Part shown: positions 10,487 through 64,000 of the stretch, one piece after another
Position numbering within the stretch: the stretch's first letter is position 1
How the letters are laid out: every line of letters begins with the position of its first letter
Source of the DNA: Psammoneis japonica
Taxonomy: Eukaryota
NCBI GenBank assembly: GCA_008632985.1
Contig: QPGO01000207.1
Coordinates: 1-64,000, forward strand
Length of the DNA: 64,000 bases
Direction: 5' to 3'
The notes under the pieces: model-generated
The model's database searches: none
Told to the model about the DNA's origin: nothing
What the model saw: only the letters and a program-made list of their open reading frames with translations
Translations under genes and position numbers: made by a program

Positions 10487-10724
10487 CTTTTGAAACTGTG
10501 CCACCAGGCATGCTGGAAGGTGTGTGTGAAGAGTTTGGCAGCTTGCAAGCTTTCAAATTGCCAAGATGTGTGCAGCAAAGCTTCCTGCACAACATTTTGA
10601 CCTGCAAGGGCAAAGACCAGAGCTGAGGTTGTGTCCTCAGATCCAACCCTTGAACAAAATCCACCACAAGGGGCAGCTCCAGCTGCAGCAATTGCCACCT
10701 TGGAGCTTGTTTAATTGCAACAGC

Positions 10725-11425
10725 GCCCTGCAGCTTTTGTGCAAAACCTGCTCCCCACAGCTTTGCACACCCTGCAGCTGGCTTTGTGCACTCTGCAGCT
10801 TTTGTGCAAAAGAACCCGCACCCCATGGCTTTTTGCACTGTGCAGCTTTTGTGCAAAACCTGCACCCCACAGCTTTGTGTGCCCTGCATCTTTTGAGCAA
10901 AACCTGCAACCCTGCACCATGCAACCTTCCTGCAGCTTTTGTGCAAAACTGGTGCCCTGTAGCTTTGCAAACCCTGCAGCTTTCTTTGTAAAACCTGCAC
11001 ACTGCAGCTTTCTGCATCCTGCAGCTTTTGTGCAAAACCTGCACCCGGCAGCTTTGCACACCCCACTGCTTTCTTTGTGGGGCCTGTGCACCACAGCTTT
11101 CTGCACCCTGCAGCTTTTGTGCAAAACCTGTGCACCACAGCTTTCTGCACCCTGCACCCAGCTTGTGAGCAAAACCTGCACCTTGCAACTTTGTGCACCC
11201 CACAGCTTTTGTGCATGTGCAAGACCTGCTGTGACCCACAGCTTGCTGCACCCCCACAGAAGCTGCAGCTTTTGAGCCACACCTGTGCTGTGCAGCTTTC
11301 TGCACCCCATGGCATTTTTTGTGAAAGCTGCAGCTTTGCTCCCACACCCCAAAGCTTCTGTGCACAGCTTTCTTTGCAAAGCCTGCACCCCACAGCTTTC
11401 TGCACCACCCTCCAGCTTTTGTGAC
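10725..11425. repeat. Degenerate minisatellite (CTGCAGCTTTTGTGCAAAACCTGCACCCCACAGCTTT-like units)
   Basis: Many imperfect copies of GCAGCTTT / GCAAAACCTGCAC. Confidence 0.9.
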
Positions 11426-11724
11426 CAGCCCCTCTGATTTCCATCTTATTTTTTCCTCTGCCCTGGGCAGATTCCACAAGAAAATGCAGCAGTGCTGTCT
11501 TGGGGACAGAGCTGTGAGTTCGCTTTGGAGCCAAGTGGCTCAAGCCCCTCCCCAAGTTGCCAAGCAGCCCCCAAAGTTGACCATCCTTTTGCAGAGCAAA
11601 TTGCCAAAGACTTCATGTGGAAATGGGAGGAGCTGGTCATGACCTGAAGCTTCCTTGTTTGTGCAATGGCAAGAAGCAAGTGTGTCTGGCTTCATCTGGC
11701 AAGGATGAGTCCTCCACTGAACTC

Positions 11725-12252
11725 ATTTTTGGGAGTTTTCTTCTCTTCTTTGGTGCCTTTAGAAGTGGCCTGCCAAAGCTTCTGTCTTTGACCTCCTCTT
11801 CTGACACTTTTGCTGGCTTGATGTTGTCTGTTGACTCACAAACCTCTGATGTCATTGCAAAGAAGTGCACCTTGTTGGCTTGCCAAACTGTTTCTTTTGC
11901 AATGGCCTCTTGGAGACTGCAGCTCACATTTGATGGCCTGCCCTGGCACCCTGGCTGCTCCTCATCTGCTTGTGCTGGCTTCATCTGCTGACTGCAATGA
12001 GCTCCTGCATTCAACTTTTTTTGGAGTTTTTTTCTCCTTTGGTGCCCTCAGAAGTGCACAAGCTTCTGTCTTTGATGTCCTCTTCTGACACTTCTGCTGG
12101 CTTGATGTCGTCTGTGGACTCACAAACTTCAGATGTCCTTGTAAAATGAATCTTGCTCTCTTGCCAACAAGTTTCTTTTGCAATGCTCCCATGGAAACTG
12201 CAGGTCACATTTTGATGGCTTGCCCTGATGCCCTCATCATCTGCTTGCACTC
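11725..12252. repeat. Diverged direct duplication, period ~290 bp
   Basis: TTTGGTGCC...AAGCTTCTGTCTTTGA...TCTTCTGACAC...GACTCACAAAC...GTTTCTTTTGCAATG...CATCTGCTTG occurs twice. Confidence 0.8.
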
Positions 12253-15200: not shown

Positions 15201-16599
15201 CAGAGAGCTTGTGCTGCCAATCTTGTGGGAGCTGAGTGCCAGCATGTCAAGGCATGTTTTTGTGCCTTTCTGCTGGGTGTCCAACAACAGCTGCAAAACC
15301 AAACATTGAGATGATGGGATCATTTGCAAGCCACAGGTGCCCATCTTAGGGCACTCCAGCATGGAAAGTGAGTTTCATCACAGCACCATTGCTTTTGTGC
15401 TCTCTTTGTTTCTTTTTACAAAGGAAACTCCTCAATCTTTGGTCATGGACCTTTTGGGTTTGTGTTTTACAAGAAGTGCTTCAAAATGCTTTGCAAGTTC
15501 CCCCCTCTTTGATGTCTCCCTTGCTGAGTTTCATCTTGTCTTGTTTCTTGTCTTTTCTCCCGTGTTGCTTGTCTTCAGGATTGTGCACTTTTTTTCAAAG
15601 GAGCTTGCACTTGACTGCTGGTGCTGTTGGGCACACCTCTCAACCTGGCTGCTCTCTCCAGCAATGCTGCAGAATGCACGGCAACCTTTTCAATGTCATT
15701 TTCAAGTTCATTGCCAAGCCTTGTCACCAAGGCTTTTTAGTTTCCTTTGTTTGTGCAATGCACGGCATTTACTTTTTCCTTTCTCAAGGTTTTTTGCAGC
15801 TGGCTTTTGCTGGCATGCCACTTGGCACATGCAGAGTGGAGAGCACAAAATTAAATTTCACATGCAAGTTTGTCACTTGTGAGTGCAAAGTTTTCACCTT
15901 CTTGTCACTTGCCTTTTTCCTCTGGCTGCAACCAAGGCCCAAAAGAAGCTGCTCAACTGAACTTTCAAATGTTGGCTCTTTGTTCTTTGAATTGTCACCA
16001 TGGCAATCAGCTGCACTTGACATGAGCTCTTTGGACAGGGTTGTCTGTCTGGACATGCTTCATTTTGTGCTCTTCTTTTTTCTTTTTCTGAGCTCAAGTT
16101 TGGCTGGCTGGGCTTTGTCACAAAGCTTTTTTGCCTCCCTGGACATCAAAACAAGATCCTTCAGACTGGCTCTTGAAAACTTCAATTCTTTCATTTTCTG
16201 AACTGTCAAGTGTTTCTGCATGGTTGCAGGCAGCAACCCTCCATCTGCCATTTGATCACATGTGAGCACTCTGCATGCCTTTCCACAGTGGTGTGAGTTC
16301 ATCATTTGCCATTTCAATCTCAATCTCCAGAGCTTCCAATTGCCTCCTGCAGGCTCTCACCTCTTTTCTGTCAAGTCTTTTGCACATCAGTTTGTCCATT
16401 GTGTGCAAATGCTTGAGCACATCTCATGTTGATGCAATCCCAGATCAGATTTTCTGCAGCTCCTTTTGCTTTTGCACACCAGAAAGCCCATTTAAAAGAA
16501 ACAAGGGCTTTTGCACCATGAGAGCAAGACATGGGACTCCAGCTGAGCCACTGCCCTGCAGATGTGTGTTCACAAATTTCAGTGTGGAGGTCACTCCTG

Positions 16600-18045
16600 C
16601 AACACACGGAGTTAGATTCTCTGTCAGGCCCTGAGCATCCTGTGACAATCTTGGCCATTGCACAGAGTTGCCTGCTGAACCTCTGATGACATCAATGAAC
16701 CTTGTTCATGCAAGCATTTCAGCACCCCTCCTCAGCATTTTTAATGCAGTTGAGGGCCCCCCATTGACTGCAACCATCACAAAATCATTGCATGCCTCAC
16801 AAAATTCATTTTGTTTTGTGCCAAAGCTTTGCATGTGTGGGGCATGGCACTGTTTCCACCTGCACAAAAGACACAGCACTGGCAAAACCTCCATCATCAC
16901 TGCACTGTGCACAGCTGCAGATGTCTTGCATTGTGTGCGTTTTGATGCTGCACACTTCTTGAGCATTGCCATTGTGAACAAGTGAGCACTCTGTCAACTG
17001 CAATGGTGACAAAGCCACCACTGCAATGACTGACATGTTTTTTTCACTCAGCCCTTGTTCATCACAAAGTGGTGCCTGGCACTGGCTCTGCATCATGCAC
17101 CCTCAGCAGCACATGCACCAGCAGAATTTCTAGCTGCAGTTGTCACTCTGCATTGAACCAACCATTTTTGTGTGGATTGGAGATCCATCCTCCCCTGGCA
17201 GGTCCCCTGACTGATTTCTTGTTGGACCAGGTCCAAACATGCAGTGTCACAGAATGCAAAATGCACACATCAAACAAAATTGTGGGCAGCAGTGCTGAGC
17301 ACATCAAACGAAGACAGAGGCTCTTCTTTGTGAAGCCACTTGCCTTCCTTTGAGAGCAGTGCTTGCCTGAGCACCTGCCTTTTTGGGATGCATGGGCTCA
17401 GCTGTGGCATTGTGAGCTTGAGCTTTTCAAGGTGTGGAAGTTGTTTCTCCATGCTGGATGTTGCCACAACCCCTTTCCAGAGTTTTTGATGGATTGTGCA
17501 AAACTTGAAGCCACGCACCGTGTCACATCCTGTGCCACATGTCCGCCAGAGAGAGTGCAGATGTCATGCACATGCCACCATCAGTTGGTTTGGGCAATCA
17601 AGCCTCCCACTTTTTCCACAACTGGCAACAGTCAAGGAAAGTGAGGCTCACATCCAAACCCTCCTCCCAGCAAGTTCAAGATGATTTTCCATTGGGTCCA
17701 TTTTCCCAGGTGACAGCATGAGCCTGTCAGCTTTTCAACAACACTTTGAGCCAGCCACACTTGTCTGATGCAGCCACAAGTCTTTTCCAAGGTTGACCTG
17801 ATGTAATTTCGAGTGGGGAGGGTTCATGCTGGATGATTCAACTCAAGCCATCATTTGAAGACCAAACAGTGGGGAGAGCGACGAGCCCGGTGCGTGAATG
17901 CATGTCTTACATCCACGCTACGAGTGAATGACCAACAAGCAAAAAACGACTCTGCTTTATGACATTGCTCATTTGTCAACTCGAATCCGCATTCAGCAAC
18001 GGTTTCTGGAAAGCATTTGGTGATAAGATCAGGTGGTATCTTCAT
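16600..18045 (-). pseudogene. Possible hAT-like transposase remnant
   Basis: AESFFACWSF...FK*WLELNHPA*TLPTRNYI resembles the F..P.Y.LP.R N-terminal hAT region. An SDN-like motif lies near 17140. Heavily decayed. Confidence 0.35.
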
Positions 18046-42062: not shown

Positions 42063-42426
42063 CTTGCTTGAAAAGACGAAATAACCCTACTTTATGTGAA
42101 AAGTTAAAATAATGAAATGAACAGTGACTTTATTCTTGGGGTGTTGAAATACTGTAGGTCCACTAACGGGCAAGCTAGTCTTATCCGATGACGTCGCGGT
42201 CCTGTTTGATTTGTGCCGTCCATGGGCAAGGTCACGACAAATGTCACGGAGGCAAAGGCGTCATTATCCGGAATAGTGTTATTAGTTGCCACGGCTAGGA
42301 GTGAAAAAGCCCGTCCTGATTGGAGAGTATACACGTGAGAGCATACCATAGCCAGATCATCTGGTGGCAGACACGGCCGTGTGTGATTTCGTGCGCCTGT
42401 AATGAGTGCTTCAAACTGATGTTCAC

Positions 42427-42660
42427 AGTCACGACTCAACGTCATTCTGGTCGCATCTCACGACTACAACCCAGACTCAGATTTTCTCTTCGAAATAATC
42501 AGCTCATCACAAAATTGATTCAAACAGAAGCAACGACATTCGTCATAATTTTTAGACAACGACTTTGAACAAGCGTCTGTTTACCTCTGTTGCTGTTCAT
42601 GTTGCTGCCAACCTCCGAGGTCTTGTCCATCCCACCCAGCTGTAGGACTGCATCTCGACT
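42427..42660 (+). repeat. 5' LTR (234 bp)
   Basis: Direct repeat of 48568-48802. Ends AGTC...GACT. Confidence 0.95.
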
Positions 42661-42822
42661 GGTCACAGAGACCAATTTGCGCATTGACGAGAGCTCCTGA
42701 CCGAGTCATCATCACGGACGCTTTCGGTTTTTGATTTTGAAGCAAACCCGGGAAATGGCTGAGTCTCTCTCGCTTCTCTCGTCTTCACTCCAACAAGAGC
42801 CTCTCACACTGCACTCTCTGTC

Positions 42823-45800
42823 ATGGCTGCCATCGATCCGGCTGTTCTGGCGAAGGCGTTTGCCGACGCAATGGCCGCCAACGCCACGGCGACCGCTCCT
42901 ACGGCTCCAACCAAGCCGTCACGTGGTGGAATTCACCCAACCCACGGGGTTTACATTGGTGGTTCCAAACTCAACAACGTGAAGGACGGGGAGTGGCCTG
43001 CATTGGTTGCCAAGCCACCCGAGAGCAATCTTTCGACTGCGGATGACCCTGGGAAGACGAAGCACTGTTGTGGTTGCGGTCTCGAGGGGTGCGCCAAGAA
43101 GACATGCCCGAAGTGCAATGCCAAACCGCTGCGCGACGATCCTCCTCCCAATCCGCCGCCTGCAGACGACCCTTCCAAGAAGAAGAGGCGACCCATCGCT
43201 GCCTGGCGTGCTAAATTTGACGGAGAAACGAAGAAGGACAAGAATGGCAAGGAATGGAAGTGGTGTGCCACGTGCACGGCGAAGGGTGCCGACAAACCTG
43301 GAATCTGCCAGAAGCACTCTACCGCGGACCATGCCGACGACCACAGGCGCCCTCCCAAGGAGACCCCAGCCGGGAATTTGTCTTCCGTTGCTGATCCGGA
43401 TGGTGGCGTGCCCATGGGTCCGCCCGCTCAGACTGCCAAGGAACCAGAGGGAGACGAATCCGACCCCAACGAGTTGGTTTTCACGGGAATGTGGTGCGCG
43501 GCTGCGGATGCCGTCACCGACCCGGATTTCTGTTCCGCCCCTGTTGCTGCTGCAATTGTTGTTGCTCCGGCTTCTTCGGCCGAGAGGGAGAGCGATGCAG
43601 TCGTCAGTGCTGAGGTGGTTTGCAACGAAACGAGCCCACCTCTGCTCACCTCAGTCGTGGATCCAGTCGTGTCTCCCATCGTGGTTGAGACTGTCACTCC
43701 CGAAGACGCCGATGACTTCTGCGAATGCTCCGACGCTTTCTCCACCTTTGAAAACGAACCACCGGCTGTTGAGTTGTTTCCAGCCTCGAAGCTGTGCTCT
43801 GTCAAGCATCCAGATGAGTTCTTTGACGCTCCCGCACATTTGACGGACATGCTGTCAGATGACACAAAGTTGGATCTCATCCTTGAACACGACGTACACT
43901 TTGAAGACGCATGCCACGACTTGCCTCCGTGTGCCACGTATCGTGGCTTCGATTTCTGCGATCCAGAGGTCCTGGACACGGATGATTGTCACGAGGACGT
44001 CGAAGACGAGCCCACTTCGCGTCGCTCACTCTTGGGACGAGTCAAGCTGTTCACATTCTGGCTCGCCGCCATGTTTTGGGAAACGGTGCTGCATCTTTGC
44101 TTTGCTCCGATCCCATGCATCCCTCGAGCTCTACGCCGCCAGCGCAACCTCCCAACTTTGCACGGGTTTCCAGCCTCCTGGATGGTCCCATCCGTTGCAG
44201 TGATGGTGTGGTCAGCAGTTTACGCCGGTCAACAGCCCGAGCATCCATTCTCAAACGTGCCAAGTCGTTTTTCGACCGCTGGCTCTCAAGTCTACCACAT
44301 TGTGGAAGAGCTAGATGACCGGATGGTGTTGGATGCGGGGTCACTGTTCGAACATCACAGGATCAAAGGCACGCAAGTGCTCACCGAGTTTGTCGCGCGC
44401 CATCCGTCACACGCACTGAGCACTCGTCTCAAGGCCCACTGGGAGAGCTTGGAAGTCGCTGAACGGTCTGATGCGATGGACGAATCAGCCTTCTTTGACA
44501 CCCATGAGGAACTAGAACCTCTCGACGACCAGAAATATTTCTTCGACGCTCTTGAGGACTTCAGCCCGGATTTCTTCCGGTTTGACGAGCTCTGTCTGCC
44601 GAATCATGTCGTGGACACTGCCCATTTTCAAGATCCTGTGGAACTGTTGGAGGAAGCAAGTGTTAGACCAGTCGTCTACAATGCCTCCACCATCCAACTG
44701 CTCACCGGACAATCTCAAGCCGACCTCCTTGCATCCGATCCGCAGGCACTCATCGGTCTGTCGGACGAGGCTCTCACGGTCGTCATGGACACTGGTGCCA
44801 CGTTAGCCATCACCCCCGACAAAGATGATTTTACGGGGCCCATGACTGTTCCCAAGAAACCCTTACAGATCAATGGGATTGCCAACGGTCTTACCATCCA
44901 GGGTGCCGGTCCGGTTGCATGGGTGTTCACAACGCCAAGTGGCGCTGCCATCCAACTGAACACCATGGCATGCTACGTTCCTGGAGCCCGTCAGCGCCTG
45001 CTGTCGCCTCAACGCCTCTTCAACGAAGAGAAGGGGGTGCGTGGGAAGTGTGAGGGCGATGAAACCACTTTCCGTTTACATGTTGACGGGACAGGCAAGT
45101 TGGTCGTGCCATGTCATCCATCAAGCCACTTGCCTGTTGCGTCGATGACCAAGGGCGCATCTGCCGCTCCTCAAGTGAATCTACAGATCCTCAACGAGGA
45201 GAATCAAAACCTCACGGCAGGCCAAAAGCTTCTTCTCGAAATGCACGCCCGTTTTGGCCATTTGAACTTTGGTCGCATCCAAGCACTTCTCCGCGCAGTT
45301 CCGTTCCTGTCGAACCGTTTCAAGTCCGCAGCGAAGTGTGACCACCCAAGATGCGAGGCATGCGAATGTGCCAAAGGTCATGGACGCTCCCTTGGATCTA
45401 CTCACAAGTCGACAGTCCCTGAACGCGACGGGGCCCTTCGTGCTGACCATCTTCAACTGGGTCAGGCTGTCAGCGTTGATCATTTTGAGTCCCGCCTTTT
45501 AGGCCGCACCTTCAACTCATGTGGCAAAGCCACGTCCAAGCAATTCAAGGGCAGTTGCATCTTTGTCGACCACGCCTCTGGCCATGTCCAGGTCAAGCAC
45601 CAACTAGGTTTCTCCGCTGTTGAGACGATGCGAGCGAAGCAAGCGTTTGAGAAACATGCTTTGGACCACGGCGTCATCGTCCAAGAATTTCTTGCCGACA
45701 GTGGCGCTTTCAAGGCCAACGCTTTTGCACAACACATGCGAGAACATGAACAACGTCTCCGTTTTTGTGGAACCAACACCCATCATCAGAACGGCGTCAC

Positions 45801-48660
45801 AGAGCGGGGCATCCGCAGCATCTCCAACATGGCGAGAGCGATGTTGCTTCATGCATCAATCCACTGGAAGGGGGGAATTGACAGCTCCCCATGGCCCATG
45901 GCAGTTTCTCATGCCACGCATGTCTACAATGTCACCCCAAATTCCAAGGGACATTGCCCAGCGGACATTTTCACTGGTTCGACAGTGCCAAGACATCGGT
46001 TGCGCGACATTCACACATGGGGATGTCCGGCGTACGTGCTTGATCCGACCCTCGCTTCCGGCAAGAAACTCCCGCGTTGGGAGCCTCGCACTCGTCGCGC
46101 TTTGTTCGTGGGACTCAGTGCCATCCATTCCAGTGAGGTTCCTTTGGTCCTCAATCTTCAAACTGGAAGTGTCACTCCTCAGCATCATGTGGTCTTTGAC
46201 GATCTCTTCACTGCCGCACCATCAATCGAGAGGGAGACGGATCCACCCGATCACTGGGAACACTTGTGCCTCAACCAATCGACATGCATCCCTCTGGAGA
46301 AGGATCAAGCAGTTCGTTTGCACGATGAGTGGCTTGCCCCTCCAGAGCATCAACGTAAAGAGCGAGAACTGGCCAGAGCAACACGTGTTCGCGGCCATTT
46401 TGAGCCCACTCCATCAATTGCTGTGCCGGATTCACCCACTTCTCGCGACGACGTTGCCGATCGAGTCGCACCTGCGACTCAGCATCCAACGCCACCAGTC
46501 CCACCTGCGACTCAAACTCCCACAGACTCTATGGACTCTGCGCCAATTCAGCCACCTGAACCTCAAGACAGCAACGAACTTCCGCCACCCGAAGCGCCGA
46601 CGGAACCAACAGCTCCTCCCCCAGTCGAGACACCTCCTGTGACGAATCCAGAGGGAGTGCCAGGGCTGCGACGGTCTTCACGGTCAACCAAGGGACAGCT
46701 CAACTCTGCCAAGTTTGTGGATGAGGTCCACTTCAGCTCCGTCGAGGAAATGCCACTGCCGATCGGACACGAGGCTCAGCCAGCGCATCTGGCAACTCTC
46801 GAGACGGATTTGGACAGTGGTGCCATCAATGTCGGCAATCCACGAGCCTGCGCAGCTAGTGAGAAAACCAAGGACCCTGATGTGCCTTCGTCACACAATG
46901 CTCTGAAAGGTCCGGACGCCGACGAATGGATTGAGGCAATGAAAATTGAAGTCAACGCACTCACACATCGTCGAGCCTGGAAAGCAGTCGAGCGTCAGCC
47001 GCACGTGAGTGCACTTCCAGGTGCATGGGCACTGAAACTCAAGAGACTCCCAGATGGAACCCCTCTCAAGCACAAGGCCCGACACTGCGTCCGCGGTGAT
47101 TTGCAGAAAGAAGGAGTCGACCACTTCGAAACCTGCGCGCCGGTTGTGCAATGGTCCAGCATCCGACTCATGCTCACTGCGGTGTTAAAGGAGGGATGGA
47201 CTGCACGTCAGGTGGACCACACCACAGCCTTTTGCCAAGCTGATGTTGCCGAGGAAGTTCACACAACACCGCCGAAGGGATTTGCGCCAAGGTCGGGACT
47301 CAACATGGTTCTCAAACTTTTGAAAGGACTGCACGGCCTAAAACAGTCTCCCAAAGGCTTCTGTGAGAAGTTACGAGCTGGTTTAACCGAGCATGGATGG
47401 GTGCCTTCAGCCTCAAATCCCTGTTTGCACTTCAAAGAGGGCATGATGTGTGTGGTGCACGTCGACGACACCGTTTTTGCTGGAGCTTCAGCTGAAGCTC
47501 TAGAAGCCGAAATTCGCAAGTTAGGAGTCTCCGACGACGAACATCGCCACGCATTTGAACTTAGAGATGAAGGAGAAGTCGGCAACTTTCTCGACATCAA
47601 GATCGAAAAGCTCTCTGAGGGTCGATTTCTGCTCACTCAACCCGGTCTAATTGACAAGGTCCTGCACACCGCACAGATGCAGGACTGCAATGGAGCATCT
47701 GCTCCAGCTCTGCCTGCGGCTGTTGGTGCCGACACGGACGGCCCACCTTTTGATGAACCCTGCGATTGTCGCTCAGTTGTTGGAATGTTGATGCACTTGG
47801 CAGCGAACAGCCGGCCAGACATTGCATGTGCCACACACCAAGCAGCTCAATTCTCGTTTGCACCCCGAGCGTCCCACGCTGCTGCAGTGAAGCGGATGCT
47901 CCGACACCTCAAAGCAACTGCTGCTGAAGGTCTCATTCTCAAGCCTGCGCAAGATCATCGAGTTGATTGTCACGTCGATTCTGACTTCGCGGGGTCATTT
48001 GGTGTGGAAGATGGTCAAGACCCAGTTTCTGTCAAGTCCAGGACTGGACACCTCATCTGCTGCGCCGGCTGCCCGCTTGTCTGGGTGTCCAAGCTGCAGA
48101 CTCTTGTGGCATTGTCGACTGTGGAAGCGGAATGTGTCGCACTTTCTCAAGCCATGCGCGATCTCATCCCCATTCGTGAAGTTCTCAAGGAGCTCAACCA
48201 CCACGCACTCGGAAAGTCTGACCGCCAAAACCCTGCCACGACTCACTCCAAGGCTTTTGAGCTCGTAACCCAAGGCACCGATGACTCGCCTGCAGCACAG
48301 AATGTCCTGCCTGTGTCCGTTGTGCACAAAGATGACTCTGCGTGCCTCAAGTTCGCACGCATGCCCAAGTTGTCTCCGCGAACCAAACACATCGGTGTCC
48401 CGTGCCACTGGTTTAGGACCAAAGTCAAACAATTGGAGATCGACATCCAACCTGTCAGTGCTCTAGAGCAACTGGCCGATCAGTTCACGAAGGGACTGCG
48501 GACCGATGCGTTCCGTGCGGCTGGAAAGGCTCTTGTGGGCTGGTCAGCTCTCTCGGTTGAGAGGGAGAGTCACGACTCAACGTCATTCTGGTCGCATCTC
48601 ACGACTGCAACCCAGACTCAGATTTTCTCTTCGAAAATGATTGGCTCATCACAAAATTGA
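42823..48660 (+). pseudogene. Copia gag-pol: frame open but conserved residues mutated
   Basis: Zn knuckles, protease MDTGA, HARFGH...CEAC, integrase SVD/ADSG/HQNGVTER, RT HVDD (for YVDD) and LHGLKQSP (for LYGLKQ), RNase H HVDSDFAG and EAEC. Confidence 0.92.
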
Positions 48661-48802
48661 TTCAAACAGAAGCAACGACATTCATCATGATTTTTAGACA
48701 ACGACTTTGAACAAGCGTCTGTTTGCCTCTGTTGCTGTTCACATTGCTGCCAACCTCCGAGGTCTCATCCATCCCACCCAGCTGCAGGACTGTGTCTCGA
48801 CT
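48568..48802 (+). repeat. 3' LTR (235 bp)
   Basis: Follows the polypurine tract and is followed by TSD TTCAC. Confidence 0.95.
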
Positions 48803-51584
48803 TTCACAACCCAGGCAAACATTCTTTTCCGGTGCTGATAAATAAACTGAGGGTCTCATTCGCTGACTCTGTCTAGCACATGTGCTAGAAAGGAAACGAG
48901 CACTTACATTTCAGTGAATGTTTTCTCTTGCTGGCTGAGGAGAGATGCGCAGACAAGTCGTTCGACTCACCTCACTCTGGGCAATGTATCCAACCGGTGT
49001 AAACACTGGCACTTTGAATCAACCAGGGTGCAGCAGCGCTGGATATGCCGCCGTAGAATTGCTTCTCACGTTCGTCGTCGAGAAAGGTCGAGATCTGATG
49101 TAACAACACGTTCGTCAGCCATGCGTGGTCGACTCACGACGTGGTGTACTACGTCAAATTCAGAAAGAAAAGGAGCAGCGCTGCTGCATAGACTTTGGTT
49201 TCGCTCGAACCGACATCTTTGTGAGAGCTGAATCTGACATTTCAATGGCACGAGTAGCAGTTACGATAGATCTATGGGGGGGGGGGGGGGGGAATATAAA
49301 CGGAGTGAATCGCATTCGTTGGTGCATAAAATCAAACAGGCTGAGCAGGAAGGTAACTGTACGTGGTCTCAACATGCAGCGCATTCTGTGGCAGTGGCAA
49401 TGCGCTGATTCAGCATTGGCCTGGCAACCGATCGCACGCCGCCAACACCCTTGTTACTTGTTACGGTACGCACCTTGAGATTGTACTACGTTTCGAGCTA
49501 CCATAGCCCGCCATCGTTGGATGCATAAGCAAGTAGAGCAGAACACTGTTGAACGTTGGCAACGAATGAATGAATCTCAACACGAACGAGCCAGAGACTT
49601 GTCCGAAACGCAGGAACGATTCCCAGGTAATCAAATCTTCCATTCGAAAGAAGAAGCGCTTTCAGCATGTCCCTATATCCACCGTCTGGAGTTTGAGAGT
49701 CAGCAGATAAGCCAAGAAGACATGCTCCTTTTGATTGTCTCATTATACTCTTTCCGTTGCACTTGTGTTCAACATCGTGTAGCATTTGCATCCTCTGGTA
49801 AGTGCTTGTTTCATTAATGTGTCACAATGTCGATTGGTTCGGGGTTTTTGTTTGGAAATTGTCACTCTGGTTTGCAATGGGGCAAACTCATTGAGACCCC
49901 TATAAGCAGCCGTGCAGTCTTGGGAGAAGTGATTCGCATATTTCAGCTAACATGGCAATGCCCCGTTTTCTACATCTGTGGCTGCCGTCCGTAAATGTCT
50001 CTTCATCACCAATCCTTATCTTTCACATATCGTGATAAAATAATAATCTAAGCTTCGACTTCATACCACTTGCTGGTCTCATGTACAACAACACAGAGGC
50101 CGTCACCATTCCTCGAAGCAAAACCTCGTCCTTGCATGCCCGCGTTTGATAGTAAACGATAGCTCCAAGGAAGGTTATCCTCGATTTCGCCAATCGAACC
50201 AGTATTTTTGGATCTACTACGCTCTATTGATAACAGCAAATCGACATTGCATCAAGTCAAGCGCATCACGTGATAGTCTCCATTTCCAACTAGTCAAGCC
50301 TCCAAACATGTCTGCTCCATAGTCAGCCACAAGCATGCGGACAACTCGCAGGGATGCCTTTTCTCCTTCGGTTCTTAAGGGAAGCACAGGGGGAGTGAAT
50401 AGCAATTAGTTCTCTGTCCTTGAACCCCAGATTGTTCTACACTACACATGTCATTCACCTGCATGCCTTCAGCTTTCTTTCAAAACATGTTCGCTCCACC
50501 TATGGACAGGATGCGAAGGTGAAATGGAGCCCCTAGCGGTTGTTCTGATGGTAATTTTGAAATTGTAGCAAAGTCTTGACAGTGCTACAGGTGTTCTGTA
50601 AACTAGATAGTCCCAATGCACCATCCAGAGACCACACTAGTTAAGTATTTGAAAGAAGCTCAAGCGTCGCACAAGGTCCAAACGGCAACGTGCTGATCAG
50701 TCGGTAAGGACGTCGTTTCGAGCACCAGAATATTTTTCTTTAAACCTTGAAAGCAGCTGCTAGCGAGAATTGGGTCACGCTTAGCACCCAAAACGTTGAA
50801 CCTCTAGGATGTTTGATGTATCCTTCAGGGCTTGGCTTCCATGCGTTTGCCTTGAGTTCCGTCTTCTCGTCAGTCGTGGTGGTGAACATCCCAATATCGA
50901 TCGGATATGAATCATCAGCTGCACCAAAGGCATACCGTAGGAGTGTTAGTTGCGAACTGGATGTCGGTTGGTTAGGCCATTGTCAGTTGGTGGTGGTTGG
51001 GTTCCTGCAGTTGATGACAGGGGACATTGTTAGGAAACTTTTGTGGAGGGAGAATTTGCGATACAAGTTATGTAGACTTCTACGCGTTTTGAAAATTTGC
51101 CTGCGATGATGGGCGGACTGCAATTTTTGACGCTCCGTTCGTTCGACACATCATACATCATCGGCGCACAATGCTTCTCAATAGTTGCGAGTTGGGAGAT
51201 AGAGTCTGTCGCCATGGCACTCTTGTCAATAGAAAAGATTCTTTTGTGTCTACACGATCATGTTTTGGTAACCATCAAGTCTGCAACAGAGTTTTCTGTC
51301 ACTTCTGGTGAATGAAACTGAAGCGAAATTCGTGCTCGCTGCCTTTGCCATTTGCGTGTTGACATTTATTTTGTACGGCCATCAGCAGGCCGCCCATCAA
51401 GTCATCACCAGAATGAGACGAAAAACCGAGAATTGCATTGTTCGGATTATGGTGTGCACAGCTTTCCCGTTGTGCTTTTTCGATATTCCTTTCTTGTCTC
51501 CAGCGCTCTCGATGAAGCGCAAAACGGAATTACGCTCGTGGTTTCACTCAGAGAATGTGATCGACATGCTTTTGTCAATCCATT

Positions 51585-54615: not shown

Positions 54616-57600
54616 TGATCGAAAAACATGGATTCTCTGAGATTTTGTTTGTGTCGTGACCGTTGCTAAATTTCTCAATCACTATCATTTTTGTGTAGCT
54701 TGGTAGAATTAATACCATGTGTTCGTGTGTAGAACATTCGTGGGACTTGGTACTTTCAAAATTATTACTAATTCCTACGTACACTTTACGGCAACCGCAG
54801 ACGCGTGCAAAAAGAAAAACACTGCCAAGAGGTGTGGCGCCTCTCTCAGGGAGGCGCCATGCATGATGCATGTTCACAAACTGGCCAGCCAACGAATCTC
54901 CCCCATGGGCGGCAGCCCATCGGGCTCTCACAGCAAAGAGGCTCTTGGTGCCAGACAAAAATCAGCAGGCATCAAAGGAGGAGGCATTTGTGCGATGCAT
55001 GTGCTCTGGGAAAGGGAGCAGCACAAGTTCAAAGACGACTGCACTTTTCTGTTTTCCCATCAATGCACCCAATGGATTCAATGATGAGATGAGTGGCAGG
55101 AGGGCCTTGACGTTGCTCACGACATGAGACATGCTTGGCCATTTTTTACTGCTTTCAATTGTTGCAATCATTGGGCCATTCCAGTTGTCCCCAGCCACTT
55201 TGGCGCAAGGTGGCCTTCTTGCTCAGTCAGCAACAGGGAAGGTGTTGATGCCCAAGTTGATCCGCTGGGGTTGGCTGCATGACACTGCAGCAGCCACATG
55301 GACTGGGGTTTCTTCTGCAACCAGCTCAAGACATGAGTGCTCATTTCCCCAAAATGCCCACTCACCTCCTTGGTGCGCTGATGACTCAGCAGCAGCGCGG
55401 GAAAATTTCAAGCAAGCAGCTCAGAAGTTCTTTCTTGCTCTGCACAACATCAGACCCAAGCAAAGTTGTCATCCTGTTGACAACTCCAAGAACATTCCAG
55501 TTGTTCCAGAGCACAATCTGGGGCAAAAAGCCAGGTGTGGTGGTTGATGTTGGTGCTCCAGAAGTGGGGCGCAACATCACATCAACCCAAGATGCCAGAA
55601 CAGGTTCTGGCGGATCATGAGCAAAAGAGATGCAAGCATCTCAAGCCTTGTCTTCACCAATGATGTCACTTCACACCATTTGTCACATCATGTGATTGGC
55701 TGCTTGGCAAGGAAGCCAAGGCAATGCTCTGCATGATTGCTGTGCAAAGCTTGTGGACAACTTGCAAAAGCCTCGCTCAGAAGTTTGTGACTTCATGAAT
55801 TGTGCAAGAACAAGCATCACTGTGCAGCTGGATTTGGTCATCAATGCCCCAGGGGGGCATGCACGCCATCTTCACAAATTGGCTCCAGACATCCTCAGTG
55901 GGAAAGATGGCACTGGTTTGTTCCTTTGCAGCAGCACCAAGAAACACCGAGCAATCTTCAGTGCCACATGCCAAGACAATGTGCTGACCCCCCATTTCAC
56001 AAGATGCTGCCAAAACCACTCTTCAAGATGACCATCTTGCTGACCAAAAATGGCATGACCAACACTGCTGCACTGGATGCCACTGAGTGACACGTCCAAG
56101 AAATGTTGTTCATGCAAACTGGTGCATGACACTGGAACTCCCTTCTGTTGCAAGCATGCCCTGTGGGATTGTCAGAAAGGATGTTTGACTGCAGATCACA
56201 ACTTGAAGCATTGCCTGCATGCAGGCCAGTCATGCTGGATTTTGAAGCAGCAGTGCCAGACACACAGAAAAAAAAGAGCAACATCTGAAGGCTTGGAATC
56301 AAAAATCAGTTTTTGTTTCTTGCCCACAGTGTGACAGCAAGACAAACTTCATGATGCTCACCTGGTTGCCACATTGCTGTTTAAGATGCTGCTGAGCTTC
56401 ATGTGCTGACCTCAAGCTTCTGTGCACAAGCACCTTGCCAATGTGCATGTTCATGACTGCTGTGAGCACTCCACAGCAGACTGGTGGCATCTTTTGCAGC
56501 ACCTCCAAATTGACTCTGGCTGGGCCAACTCCAGTTCTTGCACAAGACACTTTCTCTTCCATTGCAGGTGCAACAATGGCAAGAGCACATCATCATCTGA
56601 TGGCCACAATGAAGACCTTGCTGAAGGTGCAAAAGCACACACATGCCAGCTGATGGAAAGCTGCACATGCGCCAAGCACAAAATTTTTGGCATGTTTGTG
56701 CTTTGCCCCCCTCAGCAGACTGCAGCAACATGCTCAAAGGACTCGTGTGTGCACCAACATTGTTGCTGAGAGAATCTGATGTTTTGTCATCTGTCATGCA
56801 CCAAGGTGCACATTGCAAGAGCAGCAATTGAGGCAGCAGCACATCAGTGCTCACACAACACACAAGCCTGCATGGTGTGCCAGCTGATGAAAAAATGACA
56901 AATGCCAAACACACGAAACATGTGGTGCACTTGTGCTTTGCCCTCTGCTGGCAAACTGCAGCAATGTGCTGAATGGACTCCTCATGTGTGCTGTGTGCAC
57001 ACCTGCATTGCAGATGAGAGAATCTGATGTTCAAGGTGTGGCAGCAGCATTTCAGTGCTCTGATGCATTTGATGCCATGGCAGCAGTGGATTCAGGGGCC
57101 CCTGTTTCAGAATTTTGATGAGGGCATGGCTGCCAACTTTGATGAATTTGTGCAATTTTTGACCAACACCTTAGAGCCAGTGTCCTTTGCCAGGGCAGTC
57201 TTGACACTGCTGCTGCTGCCAGAATCACCTGTGCTGCAAGCTTGTCATTGCCCAGTGTTGTCTGGGGACTGGTCAGATGACATTGAGGAACTTGGGGAAA
57301 TTGAGGCTGTTTGCCTGCTCTCCTGGCAACACATTGGATGACACTCAAGAAGCGGAGCTCAAGCACCCATGGGGGGGGGGGGGGGCACTGTCTGGTCCAT
57401 TGAGTGGAAACAGAGATGGCAGTTGGCCTCCACACAACATCACTGCATGCTTGGCAGAGCAAACTCAATGCTGCTGGCAATGATGGCAAACAAAGAAGCA
57501 GAGTGCAGTGGGCCCAACACCTTGCCTTGATGCTGTCAAACCTCCCCACCAGTGACTGTGAAAGAGGCTTGCTGCTGATCATCAAGGTGGCTGTTGCCTC

Positions 57601-58322
57601 TCAGCTCTTGACCCTTGGCCTGTTCAGTGCAGGGTGAGGGCTGTTTTGTGTGTGTGCCACAAACAAAGTCTGCCCAGCCATGTTTGGTGTGGCAGGGAGT
57701 GGCAACATTTTGGAACAAGGCCACAACACAGGAAATGAAAAGCACAAAGGCAGCATGAGAATGCATGGCAGCACAGCATCTTGTTTTGGAAGCTGGGGGC
57801 AAGTTTGCAAGAGCTTTCAATTAAAAACAAACTGCAAAAGCTGCCAAGGTTTGAGCAGATGGTCTGTGCAAAAAATGCCAATGCACCCAATGGTGTGCAG
57901 CAATGTGCCCTGGACACTCTGTCTGTTGCTGCCATCACAATTTTGTTGGCATTTGACAGAACAGCAGCCACACTGCTGAGAACTGCCAGAGACACAGGGG
58001 AGCGTGAGGAGTTGTGCTGTTGACATGCTGAGTTGTTGCAAAAAGCAGCAACAAAGGGCTCCTTCAAAGGCAATGTGTTGGACTTTGGGCATGGCATTTT
58101 GTCACGAATGGCACATTGACTCAACTCCAGCACTCACTTCTCAATCTGTGCCATGTCATTTTTCCTGTTCTTGGTGCTGCTTGCATTTTGCAAGCTGGGG
58201 TAAAAACATCATCTCCTCCCTTCAATTTTGCTGCTGCTGCTGCTGCTGCTGCTGAGAGAGATGCCAAAGCTGCTCTGCTGCAGCTCAGGCTTCTTTTGCA
58301 TTTGTGCCACAAGAAGTTGTTG

Positions 58323-58992
58323 TCATCTGGCAGGGGATCTTCCCAAGCTTCTGAGACCCTCTGATCTCTGCTCTTGGCAAAAGAGCAGTGCCCCATTTGC
58401 AGGCCTCTTTTTGCAAGAGCTCAAAAGAAGCTGTGCACCACACCAAAAACCCTCTCCCTAATGTGTGGAGCCAGCAGCCTCATTGACAAAAATGGCCCTC
58501 CCCAAAAACAGACACAGCAGCAAAATGCTGGCACACAAGTGGGCTGTCTTGTTCCTCTTTTGCCAAGCCACTGTTGTTCCTGTCAAGATGCACCTCTCCT
58601 CTTGACCATGATGCAATCTGTTGATTCTGAGTTGGTCCACACTTTATTTTGGTTGTGACTTTGGCCATGATCATCTGGCAGAGGATGATCTTCTTGAGCT
58701 TCTAAAACCCTCTGATCTGCTCTTGGCAAAAGAGCAGTGCCCCATTTGCAGCTTTTTTTTGCAAGAGCTCAAAAGAAGCTGTGCACCACACCAAAAGCCC
58801 TCTCCTTCATGCATGGAGCCAACAGCCAGCAGCATCACTGTTGAAAATGACCCTTCCCAATGACAGACAGTGGCAAAATGCTGGCACACAAGTGAGCTGT
58901 CTTGCCCCTTTTTTGCCAAAGAGCTGGTGTTGTTCTCTCATCAAGATGTGCCTCTCTTGACCATGATGCACTCTGTTGATTCTAAGTTGATT
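58323..58992. repeat. Tandem duplication, period ~348 bp
   Basis: TCATCTGGCAG...CTCTTGGCAAAAGAGCAGTGCCCCATTTGCAG...GAGCTCAAAAGAAGCTGTGCACCACACCAAAA at 58323 and 58671. Confidence 0.9.
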
Positions 58993-59684
58993 TGCATCAT
59001 TTTGTTTGCAACTTTGCAAAGATGATGATTTTGAGCTCAAGTGCTCATGCTGGTTTGCAAGGCACCAACTGGTCCATGATTGAGAGGGTGGAAAAACCAC
59101 AATGCAGTCCAAACAGCAGAGACAGCAGTCCACACAACATTGCTGTGTGCTGCTTGGCAGAGAGAATTTGATGCTCGCGATGATGGCAAACAAAGAAAAC
59201 TGCAGCAGCGCTCCACCCAACACCTTTTGTTGATGCTGTCTCAAATCTCCCACAAGTGGGCACAAAAGAGGCTTGCTGCCAACCAAGGTTGCTGCTCTGC
59301 TGCTCAGCTCTTGACTGCTGGCCTGCTCAGTGTGTGTGCTGCTGCACAAACAAAGTCTTCCTGCTCATCATGTTTGGCAAGGCAGCGCAGGTCAGAGTGT
59401 GGCAACACTTGGGCAAGGCTGTGACACAGAAAGAGAAAAGTGCAGCTGGCATGAGGAGAACATGTGCAGCAGTGCAGCATGTTGCTTTGATTGAAAGCTG
59501 CCGGAAGTCAGTGTGCAGTGGCTGCTTGAACAAGAGCTGCAAAAAGCCATGCGCCAAGGCTGTTTGAGAAGATGGCTGTTGCAAAAAATGCTGGCATGCC
59601 CAATGCTGCACAGCAATGTGTGCTGGACACTCCATCTTTTGCTGTCATCATTTTCTTGGCATTTGCAAGAGCAAGGGGCCCACA

Positions 59685-61200
59685 CCAAACATTGTCAATT
59701 GAAGGAAGAGTTTTCGATGCAATCATGGTTGACAATGTGCTTTTCAGAAAACACATTGTGCGCATCTCTCTGACTCTTCCAGCAAGCAAGATGCCACCAC
59801 CACCCACGCTCACTTGGAAAAGTTTGTCATCTGGTTAAAATCCCACAACCTGTGTCAGGCGTGGCTTGTGATTTGGGATCACACCAATGGTTGTGCCAAA
59901 CAGTGCTGATGTGCTTTGGCGCTGCACTTGTTGTCTGTGTTTGCGCACAAATGCAAAACATTGTGTTTGACCATGCCATTGGAGCACCTGGACATGGCAA
60001 AGGAGAGGTTGATGGCATTGGAGCCTGCATTAAATCACTCATGCATTGAGAAATGCAGTCCACAACTGTTGCAGGAGTCAATGACAAGGATGGGAAAATT
60101 GGACCTGAAGCTTTGGTCATGGATGACAATGGCATTGCAGTCACACACAGTCATGCCAAGGAATGTTGCAAATTGCTCATAAAGAAAAAGAGTGCTCTTG
60201 GTGCAGTTGGCAACAGGCGAGGAAACATGCCAAGAGGGAATCCCTTCAAAAGTCAACAGAAAGGGTGCATTGTCTGCAGGAAGCTGATGGAGTTCTTGGC
60301 TCTTTAATCAAAGTCAAGTTGACTGGATTGGTGCAAGTGCACACGCGCCATTGTGGCATCAGAGCCTTGCACCATTTCCGATTTGAACCTCTTTTCCCCA
60401 TTGGTTGGGTTGCCATGCAAAGAATTCCTTGTGCTTGTGAAGCCTGCCTGGATGAGCTCAAATGGCCTTGGGTGAAAAATGTCAAGCCAACAGAGCAGCC
60501 AGAACATGCAGGTGGCAACCGAGCTTGCAAACTGTGGCCCATCTTTGAGGGGCTGAACAATTGGCAAGTGTGTCAGGTGATTCAAACAGATGAGAGTGAC
60601 GCCAACGAGGTGCAGCTGGTTGACAAATCTGTGTTGGACTTCCTGACTGAGGAAATGGCCAAGGAAATTGTTCTAAACAGCCATGCTGCATTGTCTTGTG
60701 AATCTGAGGAGGGCTTTTGCATGCTGCAATGGGATGAACTCCCCCACAAAGCACAGGAGGATGAGGTGTGGACAGAGTTTGACCCACCCACAACTGTTGA
60801 GGCCGGTGAATGGGTTTGCAAGGGGGAACATGTCTCAACCCTGTTCCAAGGGCCAGAGGAATGTGAGACAAGAGTGTTGCTCAAGCAAGTTGCAATTGCC
60901 AACATTGAGCTCAATGAACCCTCAGCCACTCTGGAACTGCCAAGTGCATGCAACAGGAATGAGGCTTCACTTCTTGATCCACGTCATTTGAGTGATGACG
61001 AGCATGAAGGAATTCTGGATGCCATCTGACAGCGGGAGGCAATGGATTGTTTTGAGGACTGTTTGGACGAGGAGGAGGAACACAACAGCAGCAAAACTGA
61101 TGAGTGGGAGGGAGAGAATGACAACAAGGAGGACACTGCAGAGGATGATGAGAGTGCGGCAGGGGACAGTGACAGTGATGAGTCGGATGAACAAAATGGC
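59685..61200 (+). pseudogene. DDD-type transposase remnant (Sola2-like motifs)
   Basis: LSIEG, HLSDSSSKQDATTTHAH, WDHTNGCAKQC*C (for TDGCAKQYRC), GAPGHGKGEVDGIG, RIPCAC..C, acidic tail. Superfamily assigned from remembered motifs only. Confidence 0.7.
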
Positions 61201-61369
61201 AATGGGAAAATGAATGAACACTGTGATTGTCACTTTGCATGGTGTGACCAGATTAACTGCCCAACACAAAAGCTTTCCTTTTTCCATGCAACTGCTGCTG
61301 CACCACCCCTGGAAGTTCAAACTGGTGCAACATGAACACTTGTTGCAGATGCTTTTTTGCCACATGTTG

Positions 61370-63450
61370 CACCTCATGTTCCTTGTTCCCAATTCACCAA
61401 TTCAAGCACTTGACGTCCTTTGCTGGCAATGCAAAAGGGTGGTTGGAATCAAAGATCCAACCATGGTGCAAGGCAATGCAGTGGTTGTTCACAAGATGGC
61501 ACAAAGTTATGAAGCCATCATTGCAGGTCATCACATCAAATTCACCACCCGCTTCCAAGGAAATTGTTTGATCCACACTGCCGCAAAACCCAATGTTTGA
61601 GTTTGCAGGTGGGAATTTTCCCTTCAAATGACCACCCAACATGTGCTTTGCAAACAACATGCACTTGTTGTCAGTGTTGGCACAGTTGGCAGATGTTTGA
61701 ATGTGAGAATCAATGCAGTCTCTCATTTCCATGTCGCCAGCACAATCAAGAACACTGGCCAGGGACAGACAAAAAAATGCAAGTGTCGTTTTGTCCTTGC
61801 AGGAATTTCACAGGTGGGCCGCTCGTCGGCAAGTTGCTGTTCAATGGCATCAATGCATTTCCTTCCGGCAAGGAGCAAAAACCATCCAATGGCTTCAGTG
61901 CTTTTAAATCATTCCACACATCTGGAAACCGAAACTTGAAATTGCACTCAGCCCAATCTGGGGTTGCACACATGGGACAGTTCCCCTCCAAGCTGCAGCC
62001 AATGAAATCAGCACCCCACCCAACAGGTGGAAGTTTTTGAATCTCCGCTTCAGTCAATCTCTTCAGTTTGGCAATCTGTGGTGGGTTGCAAATTGATTGC
62101 ACCTTGTTCTTAATCTTGTTCCTGCATTTTCGATTGAGTTGCATGGGAACGTTTGGTTTGTGTTTGGCACGTGCGATGAGGGCCACACACACATGTCCAT
62201 GGGATGGCCGTTCATTTCATTGTGTTGCACATCAAACCATTTTTCCCACAACATGACACCCTTGTTTTTTTCTTGAAAGCAACCAAACAAGTGAGGAACA
62301 ACTCCTTTGGAATCACCAGGATGCTGATGCCTGCTGTTCCATGAACTTGGATCAACCCAAGTGAGTTTTTTAACCCGCAACATCACTTGAGCGTCTTTGC
62401 ACTCACAATCAAGTTGATCCCTTTCTTCTTGGTGTTGCTGCTCTTTGCTCAACCAACACCATGAAGTGGCTCCTTTTGCCTTTGGTTTTGGCCCAGAGCT
62501 GTGAAGGCCAATGAGATCCTCATCCTTGCTCACTCCAGTTGTGTCTTTCTTCATGAGCTTCACATCATGTCTGTGACATGCATCTCCCACTCTCTCCCTC
62601 TTCTCTGCCTTTGTGTCTCCAAGTGCTGAGTCTTCTGCACCCTTGGCTTTGTCAACTTCTTCCTGGTCACCATCTTCCTCCTCGTCCTCAGTTGATTCAG
62701 CCATGGCCCCACCTTGACCTTGCTCCTCCTGGATTTTGTCTCACACACCATCATCTTCCTCCTTTTCCTCAGTTGATTCATCCATGGCCCCACCTTGATC
62801 TTGCTCCTCCTGGTTTTGTCTCACAGTTGCAACCTTGCAGTGGCAGCCTCGGCCTTTTGCAGGTCATCCATCACTTCAGTGCCCTCCTTCCCCTCTTCCT
62901 TTTCCTCCCCCAACTCTGCCTTCATCCTTGCATCACAGACACTGGCATGATCCATGCAACGATGGCAATGAATCCTTCTGCAAAACTTGTGCCATGCAAG
63001 TCCTGGAGCTGCCTTGCACCAGTCAGCAAGGTGAGCAAGCAGCTCTTTGCAGCAGCCCTTCCTGCTTGGTCTGGCGGGGAAGTGAACTTCAAAGATGTGT
63101 TTGTCTTCGGTGACGGCCTCCACTGACTCAGAGCATTGTTGCAGCTTGAAGTCTTTGTCTTCACTGCCAGAGGGAATCCGCAACATGTGGTTGCACCACC
63201 AACCTGCAACAATGTCAAACAATGCCTCTGATGGCAGTGTCTCACCAGGGTTGCATGGTCCAAATGAGAAAACCTTCCGGCAGCCAATCATGCAACTTGT
63301 GGGCACTTTGCATTTTACGTCGGTGGGAAGTTTGGCAATGCAGGGATCTTCCTCCATGTCATCGTCCAACTGTTCAAGCTTCTCCTTTTTGCAATGCTTG
63401 TTGTGAAAAACACAATCATCACTGTTGTCCACGTTGCCCTTCTTCAACTT
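61370..63450 (-). pseudogene. Decayed transposon accessory gene with a putative papain-fold peptidase C-terminus
   Basis: FLQGQNDTCIFLS ... NHCIAL...WIFDSN give Q/C/H/D in papain-fold order. Upstream acidic/basic region contains an 81-bp in-frame repeat. Confidence 0.45.
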
Positions 63451-64000
63451 CTCACAGCTGATTTGCTCTTGACGGAAAAGCTGCCCCCTTGTGAAACCTT
63501 TTCTTTTTGCAAAAGCTCAAAAGAAGTGACACAGCACACATGCCAGAGCCCTCCAACTCCATTGCACGTGTGTGGTGTGAGCCTGCAGCCCCTCATTTTG
63601 GCAAAAACAGCCTCTCAACCACAGGCAGTGGCAAAACCACCAGTGCACAAGTGGAGCAAGTGCCTTGTTTTTTTCGGTTGCCAAAACCACTCTTTTCACA
63701 TCAAGAAAATGCATCTCTCAACCAACAAAGTTTCAATGCGGTTTTGATTCCGAGTGGATCTGCGTCATTTTGGTCGTGCACTTTGCGAAGATGACGGGTG
63801 AAGTTCCGAATGGCATTTGGGAAGTTGAAGGTTAGACAGAAAGTTGTCGTGTCGTCAGTGTGTTTGCTGACATGTCAGAAAGGCCCATCACCTAATTCTT
63901 GATGACGTGTCTCAATTTTTTGAGACACTCGATCAACGTCAGAACGGTTGACGAATCTGCAGTGCGCATTTTTTGATGACTGGCTGGCGGAAAGCGAGTT

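Follow-up and report, generated by a model that had tools for sequence, protein, structure and literature searches.

TpA depletion in a diatom copia retrotransposon and in two further blocks of the same contig

The element and its setting

The DNA analysed here is one 64-kb stretch of a Psammoneis japonica contig (QPGO01000207.1, positions 1 to 64,000; hereafter the window). Its main feature is a retrotransposon with long terminal repeats (LTRs) at 42427-48802, in which the dinucleotide TpA is strongly depleted; two further blocks, referred to as block 1 and block 2, are depleted of both TpA and CpG. The window is eukaryotic, with about 48% G+C, and its host genes, which include those for mTERF, sulfatase, EMC2, BTB, kinase and BRCT proteins, are long and intron-poor. 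The nearest named relatives of the EMC2-like protein are from Seminavis robusta (61%) and from Nitzschia and Cylindrotheca (about 58%), with a best match overall of 77%, and by such comparisons the host genes appear nearest to those of raphid pennate diatoms, not Bigelowiella. Other copies of the retrotransposon family are represented only by contigs of a sequencing run, X1, taken unaligned. The parts of the element are listed below, with the observed-to-expected ratio (O/E) of TpA where it was counted.

42422..42426, forward strand: 5' target-site duplication, TTCAC, from alignment of the edges of both LTRs; repeated directly after the 3' LTR
42427..42661, forward strand: 5' LTR, 235 bp, with 6 TpA left (O/E 0.34), from blastn self-match, alignment and counts
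42823..48660, forward strand: gag-pol frame of 1945 codons with no internal stop, from the list of open reading frames (ORFs) and Pfam
48568..48802, forward strand: 3' LTR, with 1 TpA left (O/E 0.06), from blastn self-match, alignment and counts
48803..48807, forward strand: 3' target-site duplication, TTCAC, from alignment of the LTR edges

Comparison of the window with itself by blastn gives a direct repeat, 42427-42660 against 48568-48802, with 93.6% identity over 235 bp. The gag-pol frame matches the Pfam families gag_pre-integrs, SH3_retrovirus and RVT_2 (4e-31, about 46975-47712), so that the defining features of Ty1/copia elements are all present: an LTR pair, a 5-bp target duplication, and an integrase placed ahead of an RVT_2 reverse transcriptase. 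The polyprotein has 454 homologs; those that carry a species name belong to Fragilaria crotonensis and are 54-55% identical, and the closest of all reaches 58%. On these grounds we assign the element to the Ty1/copia LTR retrotransposons, as one of the diatom CoDi-like kind. The gag-pol frame extends about 90 nt into the 3' LTR (48568-48660) before reaching its stop codon.

Loss of TpA from the reading frame and the LTRs

Within the element the O/E values are 0.14 for TpA, 0.88 for CpG, 1.31 for CpA, 1.38 for TpG and 1.21 for TC, as compared with about 0.55 for TpA and about 1.0 for CpG in the host DNA of the window; TpA has been lost, CpA and TpG have been gained, and the G+C content is raised to 0.55. 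Followed across the borders, the TpA O/E falls from 0.79 in the 200 bp of 5' flank to 0.34 in the 5' LTR, 0.14 within the element and 0.06 in the 3' LTR, and recovers to 0.49-0.59 in the 3' flank. A preliminary description of this DNA had stated that TpA is normal again just beyond both target-site duplications, and that CpG is still too abundant for decay of 5-methylcytosine (5mC) to be the cause; these values bear out both statements, and CpG decay could not explain the loss in any case because it cannot remove TpA. Among 66 related metagenome loci the TpA O/E has a mean of 0.64 (standard deviation 0.13, range 0.34-0.93), and the TpA-loss signature was seen in none of these 66 and in none of 120 homologs taken from the 454 hits.

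The loss is reflected in the predicted protein. There are nine tyrosines in the 1945-codon frame (0.46%), the last of them at 46033 and followed by 874 codons without any, while the tyrosine content of the 120 homologs ranges from 2.17% to 3.90% with a mean of 3.09%. In an alignment with 30 near full-length homologs chosen from the 120, 29 columns have conserved tyrosine (at least 70% Tyr). The element retains the residue in three of these and has His in 12 (CAY codons), Cys in eight (TGY codons), Phe in three, Ala in two and Trp in one; for residues other than tyrosine, retention in conserved columns is 53-94%. At 47458-47469 the polymerase has HVDD in place of the motif YVDD, and the gag-pol enzyme is, as judged from this motif, almost certainly dead. 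Further replacements include Ile>Val (10), Thr>Ala (7), Val>Ala (4), Leu>Pro (4), Ile>Met (3) and Met>Val (2), and the Ile>Val, Thr>Ala, Val>Ala, Leu>Pro and Ile>Met changes are as predicted for TA>TG/CA within or across codons.

At the codon level, 143 conserved columns differ in the element. In 48 of them the change is A:T>G:C at TpA and in six it is A:T>G:C elsewhere; the remainder are 13 of CpG type, four other G:C>A:T changes, 33 transversions, and 39 that need at least two changes. Summed by direction, the ORF has 54 A:T>G:C and 17 G:C>A:T changes. Three intact relatives, those of the 66 loci with the longest open frames, were put through the same test; they have A:T>G:C at TpA in only 2 of 85, 2 of 77 and 3 of 94 differing conserved columns, and they retain conserved tyrosines at 29 of 35, 27 of 31 and 28 of 33 positions. 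By this comparison the element appears to be an ordinary member of its family, to which some 46 TpA-type replacements and, to a lesser extent, CpG-type ones have been added. Several points of the preliminary description are thereby upheld: on recounting there are nine tyrosines, and none in what it gave as the final 870 or so codons; canonical tyrosines do read as His or Cys, at 20 of the 29 conserved columns; T/A sites that straddle codons are changed as well (the Ile>Val, Thr>Ala and Met>Val replacements); and substitutions relative to the family consensus are enriched at TpA, with 48 of the 54 A:T>G:C changes falling there against two or three in each intact relative.

Conversion of TA to TG or CA cannot make TAA, TAG or TGA, and it removes TAA and TAG in all six frames. 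The two codons together occur 9.7 times per kb in the element and 32-39 times per kb in host DNA. The long open frame is therefore no sign of function, and hypermutated copies that retain such frames appear intact to gene callers.

The LTRs of a single element are identical at insertion, and those of this one now differ at ten substituted sites (14 bases) and by one indel. Nine of the ten sites are of TpA type: four are TA in one LTR and TG in the other, one is TA and CA, four are TG and CA, and the tenth is CG and CA. All 14 mismatched bases are transitions, 13 of them of the A:T>G:C type, and identity rises to 99.6% when the bases are coded as purines and pyrimidines. Thirteen of the 14 lie at an inferred ancestral TpA, for which P(>=13 of 14) = 2.7e-8 with transitions only being considered. 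At each of the four TG/CA sites the best reading is that one ancestral TA changed independently in each LTR, on opposite strands. At insertion the LTR would have had at least ten TpA, an O/E of about 0.56 or more, similar to that of the relatives (0.64). Counted by site and copy, 13 of 20 TpA have changed as compared with one of about 430 other bases; the rate of TpA loss is thus at least two orders of magnitude above that of other LTR changes, a ratio based on a single background event. Since the LTR differences are mostly of TpA type, TpA was at a normal level when the element inserted and was lost afterwards at its present site. This agrees with the earlier claim that the loss is mutational, occurred after integration on both strands, and ends at the borders of the element. 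The two LTRs are unequally mutated, with four of the ten ancestral TpA changed in the 5' LTR and nine of ten in the 3' LTR.

The two outcomes are balanced, with 33 TG and 22 CA events inferred at a 60% consensus, a count to which synonymous third-position T>C changes are invisible. A runs test gives no sign of clustering by strand (26 runs, 27.4 expected; p=0.40), and hence none of strand-coordinated mutation clusters. Forty TpA survive in the frame, and their flanks were compared with the corresponding contexts in 26 of the 66 relatives, those with longer matched stretches. A 5' A precedes one survivor where 10.9 are expected (p ~4e-4), and a 3' T follows three where 13.1 are expected (p ~5e-4). 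The survivors in blocks 1 and 2 (27 and 20, respectively) are mostly in TTAA, TTAG, TTAC and CTAA. A single rule, valid on either strand, describes these data: TpA in ATA or TAT is lost first and TpA in TTA or TAA last. That surviving TpA avoid ATA/TAT and accumulate at TTAA is a new observation. Eight of the surviving TpA are clustered at 44513-44892.

Two blocks lacking TpA and CpG

Two further blocks of the window, which are absent from the preliminary description, show a double depletion, of TpA and CpG together, that is stronger than that of the element.

8150..17650, no strand assigned: block 1, TpA O/E about 0.03 and CpG O/E about 0.05, from dinucleotide counts; sharp edges
54830..64000, no strand assigned: block 2, TpA O/E about 0.03 and CpG O/E about 0.05, continuing past the end of the window, from dinucleotide counts

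In both blocks the CpA and TpG O/E values are 1.6-2.5 (1.6-2.2 in block 1), the G+C content is like that of the host, and the borders are sharp, although CpG declines more gradually at the edges than TpA does. TAA and TAG together occur at only 4.0-4.5 per kb, and ORFs of at least 70 aa are denser here, in line with the low density of stops. Comparison of repeat units within the blocks reveals pairs that read TG in one unit and CA in the other (4, 3, 8 and 21 such pairs, the 8 and 21 coming from two repeat pairs of block 2), whereas four repeat pairs outside the blocks have 0-1 TG-versus-CA differences.

Block 1 contains tandem arrays at 10055-10486 and 10781-11215, with units of 143 bp (three copies) and 44/89 bp (about ten copies), and block 2 has dispersed internal repeats (57429-57989 and 59129-59698; 58315-58663 and 58663-59016). 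The mTERF gene (6184-8073, minus strand) begins within about 100-200 bp of the edge of block 1, which adjoins the region upstream of the gene and leaves its coding part untouched. A Pfam search of 167 ORFs of at least 70 aa (85 in block 1 and 82 in block 2) found no family above the cut-off; the lone match below it, to Conotoxin, was taken as noise. When five copia homologs were compared with the window by tblastn they matched the element only, with no copia remnant in the blocks. A blastn search in purine/pyrimidine coding gave no credible similarity of the blocks to each other, to the element or to the 66 loci, but only short matches of the kind expected from a two-letter alphabet.

We read the blocks as what are probably old repeats, first subjected to a fast process acting on TpA and then to a slower decay of CpG. 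The copia element would correspond to the first stage, loss of TpA, and to the start of the second, loss of CpG.

Origin of the depletion and relation to known systems

We consider it highly probable that the element was altered by a process that acts on DNA, is confined to the element, and changed TpA to TpG or CpA after insertion. The element would have been inserted with ordinary TpA, and nearly every 5'-TA-3' would later have become TG or CA within the chromosome. A host process working on integrated double-stranded DNA would turn the T:A pair of the TpA step into C:G, striking either strand with equal chance, ceasing within about 200 bp of the element's ends, and running at a rate about a hundred times or more that of other substitutions; the frame would stay open while catalytic and structural tyrosines were destroyed. 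Given more time, the slower loss of methylated CpG would be added, yielding blocks without either of the self-complementary pyrimidine-purine (YR) steps. The central claim of the preliminary description, that a process mutates TpA in integrated transposon DNA, fits all of this, as the change is post-integration, specific for TpA and confined to the element.

The agent may be an enzymatic base modification aimed at silenced transposon chromatin, and our first choice would be deamination of adenine to inosine by an enzyme of the TadA/ADAT2 type, as such enzymes read U or T before the target A. The term adenine-directed, as used in the preliminary description, nonetheless claims too much: TpA is palindromic, A>G and T>C on opposite strands are indistinguishable, and a thymine-directed process fits as well. 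Such a process would employ a TET/JBP-type dioxygenase to modify the T of TpA to 5-hydroxymethyluracil (5hmU) and further oxidised forms, and mispairing with G or misrepair would then give T>C. Every datum fits this route equally, and the survivor rule would simply be that of a T-directed enzyme for which ATA is best and TTA worst. Dinoflagellate 5hmU, as described in the accessible portion of the source, is placed by TET/JBP homologs with a preference for the T of TA and TC, is concentrated on repeats and silences transposons (PMC11572971), which makes the thymine-directed route a serious rival to adenine deamination. However, TpC, the other dinoflagellate context, is not lost from the element (TC O/E 1.21), and 5hmU and a TET/JBP enzyme are both hypothetical in this organism. 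For the mutagenic step itself, T>C caused by oxidised thymines, the route draws on general background. We judge the thymine-directed route unlikely, though with an appreciable chance of being correct. Error-prone repair by Pol-eta at WA hotspots (W, A or T), which had also been suggested, fits the data poorly, in that 48 of 54 A:T>G:C changes are at TpA and six elsewhere; it was set aside because ApA is not affected.

The changes might have been made before integration, with the transposon RNA or cDNA being deaminated in the retrotransposition cycle by an ADAR- or APOBEC-like activity. Replication of the element does pass through RNA and a single-stranded cDNA, retroelements that have undergone editing occur in animals, and the state at site 43209-43210 seems to be common to many copies. 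But editing of RNA or of the minus strand would yield one outcome, and the two found here are about equally frequent (TG 33, CA 22); moreover, four LTR sites have independent opposite outcomes, the inferred TpA content at insertion is normal, and the blocks, with no reverse transcriptase remnant, show the same loss. In Bigelowiella natans, too, the change arises in integrated DNA, according to the accessible portion of a preprint (bioRxiv 10.64898/2026.01.13.699255). We regard editing before integration as very improbable. An inherited composition, in which a still functional family avoids TpA under selection (for example through codon usage or nucleases that target UpA), could be argued from the intact 1945-codon frame and from the under-representation of TpA across the window (O/E about 0.55). 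An open frame is expected, though, when TA>TG/CA makes no stops; invariant tyrosines have been lost, including that of YVDD, none of the 120 homologs or 66 loci is depleted, and the LTRs diverged at TpA after insertion, all of which leaves this reading extremely improbable.

An artefact of assembly or base calling, in which TA at modified bases is miscalled as TG or CA, could be argued from the X1 data, in which only half of the element's sampled 31-mers were found. The missing 31-mers can, however, be attributed to the loss of rare variants of a multi-copy family from contigs, and a multi-copy family is what the summed X1 depth points to, at about 3100-5400 over the element and 60-140 over the flanks (about 30-50 times). 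Both insertion junctions are matched by X1 contigs with no differences (42110-42452 and 48771-49151), and the second of these includes the 3' LTR site 48790-48791; of the 2771 X1 contigs on the 16-kb stretch 41001-57000, 761 are at least 99% alike. Where a systematic miscall would be uniform, one and the same context is read differently in the two LTRs (TG versus CA), and the blocks' loss of CpG is what ordinary evolution leaves behind; we therefore hold such an artefact to be highly improbable. Transitions predominate among the differences between X1 contigs and this copy (A>G 54, T>C 46, C>T 45, G>A 38; every other kind 3-14), and just past the LTR the contigs of other copies have TGTG in place of the CACA found here.

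Several points weigh against the process that we favour. Its flank preference, with 3' T best and 3' A worst, is unlike the natural contexts of ADAT/TadA enzymes and the 3' G preference of ADAR, and no deaminase, TET/JBP or other candidate gene lies within the window. A function in defence is something we infer only. The background rate in the LTRs comes from one substitution only. The window may have been assembled from the X1 sample itself, so that the X1 reads give weak independent support; the summed X1 contig depth is not a copy number, and only 40 of the 287 X1 differences are displayed. At site 43209-43210 all nine X1 contigs read CA and this copy TG, and some states may have been inherited by many copies and not acquired singly. 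No unmutated source copy was seen among the X1 contigs.

The same signature has been described in the chlorarachniophyte B. natans by Mettrop et al. In the accessible portion of that preprint, the 302 de novo mutations of mutation-accumulation lines include 231 that lie within two integrated viral regions, and of these every one except a single case is A>G or T>C and located at TpA; mutation there runs at about 1000 times the background, the authors propose an ADAT2-like deaminase, and TpA-poor coding sequences are enriched for reverse transcriptase and DDE domains (bioRxiv 10.64898/2026.01.13.699255). The characters of that system recur here: almost all changes are A:T>G:C transitions (13 of 14 LTR bases; 54 against 17 in the ORF), they are restricted to TpA and give TpG or CpA (48 of 54 in the ORF; 9 of 10 LTR sites), and mobile DNA is hit while adjoining host DNA is spared. 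The two systems share, so far as the accessible text goes, changes that are nearly only A>G/T>C at TpA, TpG and CpA outcomes, and restriction to foreign DNA; the rate there is orders of magnitude above background, and may be so here as well. They differ in that the host here is a diatom, a stramenopile, and there a rhizarian; that the target here is an LTR retrotransposon, with the change dated to after insertion by its LTR pair; and that depletion here is near saturation (O/E 0.03-0.14), as compared with 0.45 for the viral region. The CpG loss of the older blocks and the flank hierarchy are likewise particular to the present case, as CpG is mentioned zero times, and the hierarchy is absent, in the accessible portion of the preprint. 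No report of TpA depletion or of TpA>TpG/CpA hypermutation in a diatom was found in the literature searched. The preliminary description could not confirm that the process is undescribed; in general it is not, as the signature is already known from one 2026 preprint, and here it is found in a second, distant lineage, on retrotransposons, near saturation, with CpG loss and a flank rule.

Fungal repeat-induced point mutation (RIP) consists of C:G>T:A changes, mainly at CpA, and creates TpA and stop codons. The present process resembles it as a fast transition hypermutation that is confined to a transposon, inactivates it and leaves a strong dinucleotide footprint, and in outcome the description RIP-like is apt. 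The chemistry is nevertheless reversed, with G+C rising, no stops created, and the prevailing change being A:T>G:C and not C:G>T:A. RIP further depends on duplication and on a sexual stage. As regards duplication, the data point both ways: the depth over the element is about 30-50 times that of its flanks, but the segment at 53.3-54.9 kb is deep as well and has a TpA O/E of 0.40-0.85, with depth not equating to copy number. Decay of 5mC at CpG likewise ends in TpG and CpA, as in blocks 1 and 2 and, at its start, in the copia element (13 CpG-type changes), but it differs in that the element combines a CpG O/E of 0.88 with a TpA O/E of 0.14. Dinoflagellate 5hmU offers a TA-preferring base modification on transposons within the same supergroup, but it is an epigenetic mark, and no mutational footprint is reported in the accessible portion of the source (PMC11572971).

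These comparisons suggest that the process, a presumed genome defence, is more widespread than known. As a tentative extension, which we think more doubtful than probable, an ancient DNA-editing defence might be common to diatoms and chlorarachniophytes. Its enzyme would be guided to new mobile or viral DNA, presumably by silent chromatin or small RNAs, and would rewrite TpA within the borders of that DNA, ATA/TAT fastest and TTAA slowest; proteins would be inactivated through the loss of their tyrosines, with no stop codon being made; with CpG decay, both YR steps would be erased, making it a counterpart of RIP with opposite chemistry across the SAR (stramenopiles, alveolates and rhizarians) group. 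If a rhizarian alga and a diatom do have one process in common, a widespread and overlooked genome defence is likely, and transposon age, open frames and G+C content in diatom genomes would have to be read differently. Comparison of LTR pairs provides a means of measuring the kinetics of the process from any assembly, and the ATA/TAT-sensitive, TTAA-resistant flank rule is a fingerprint for testing candidate enzymes. Base-editing biology would have a direct interest in the enzyme, whether it deaminates adenine in chromosomal DNA or modifies thymine.

Three further observations concern the element's expression and its surroundings. No RNA dataset was among those listed as matching the sampled words of the element. 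The non-coding segment 53283-54884, beside block 2, has an X1 depth of about 1800-3900 as compared with about 100 nearby, a TpA O/E of 0.40-0.85 and near-normal CpG, and it holds a tandem duplication of about 340 bp (54021-54259 and 54364-54600); should this segment be multi-copy, some repeats would be spared by the TpA process. In the host flank at 41153-41372, about half of the X1 depth represents a second haplotype with mixed substitutions (A>C, T>G, C>T and others), which looks like ordinary heterozygosity, with a spectrum unlike that of the element.

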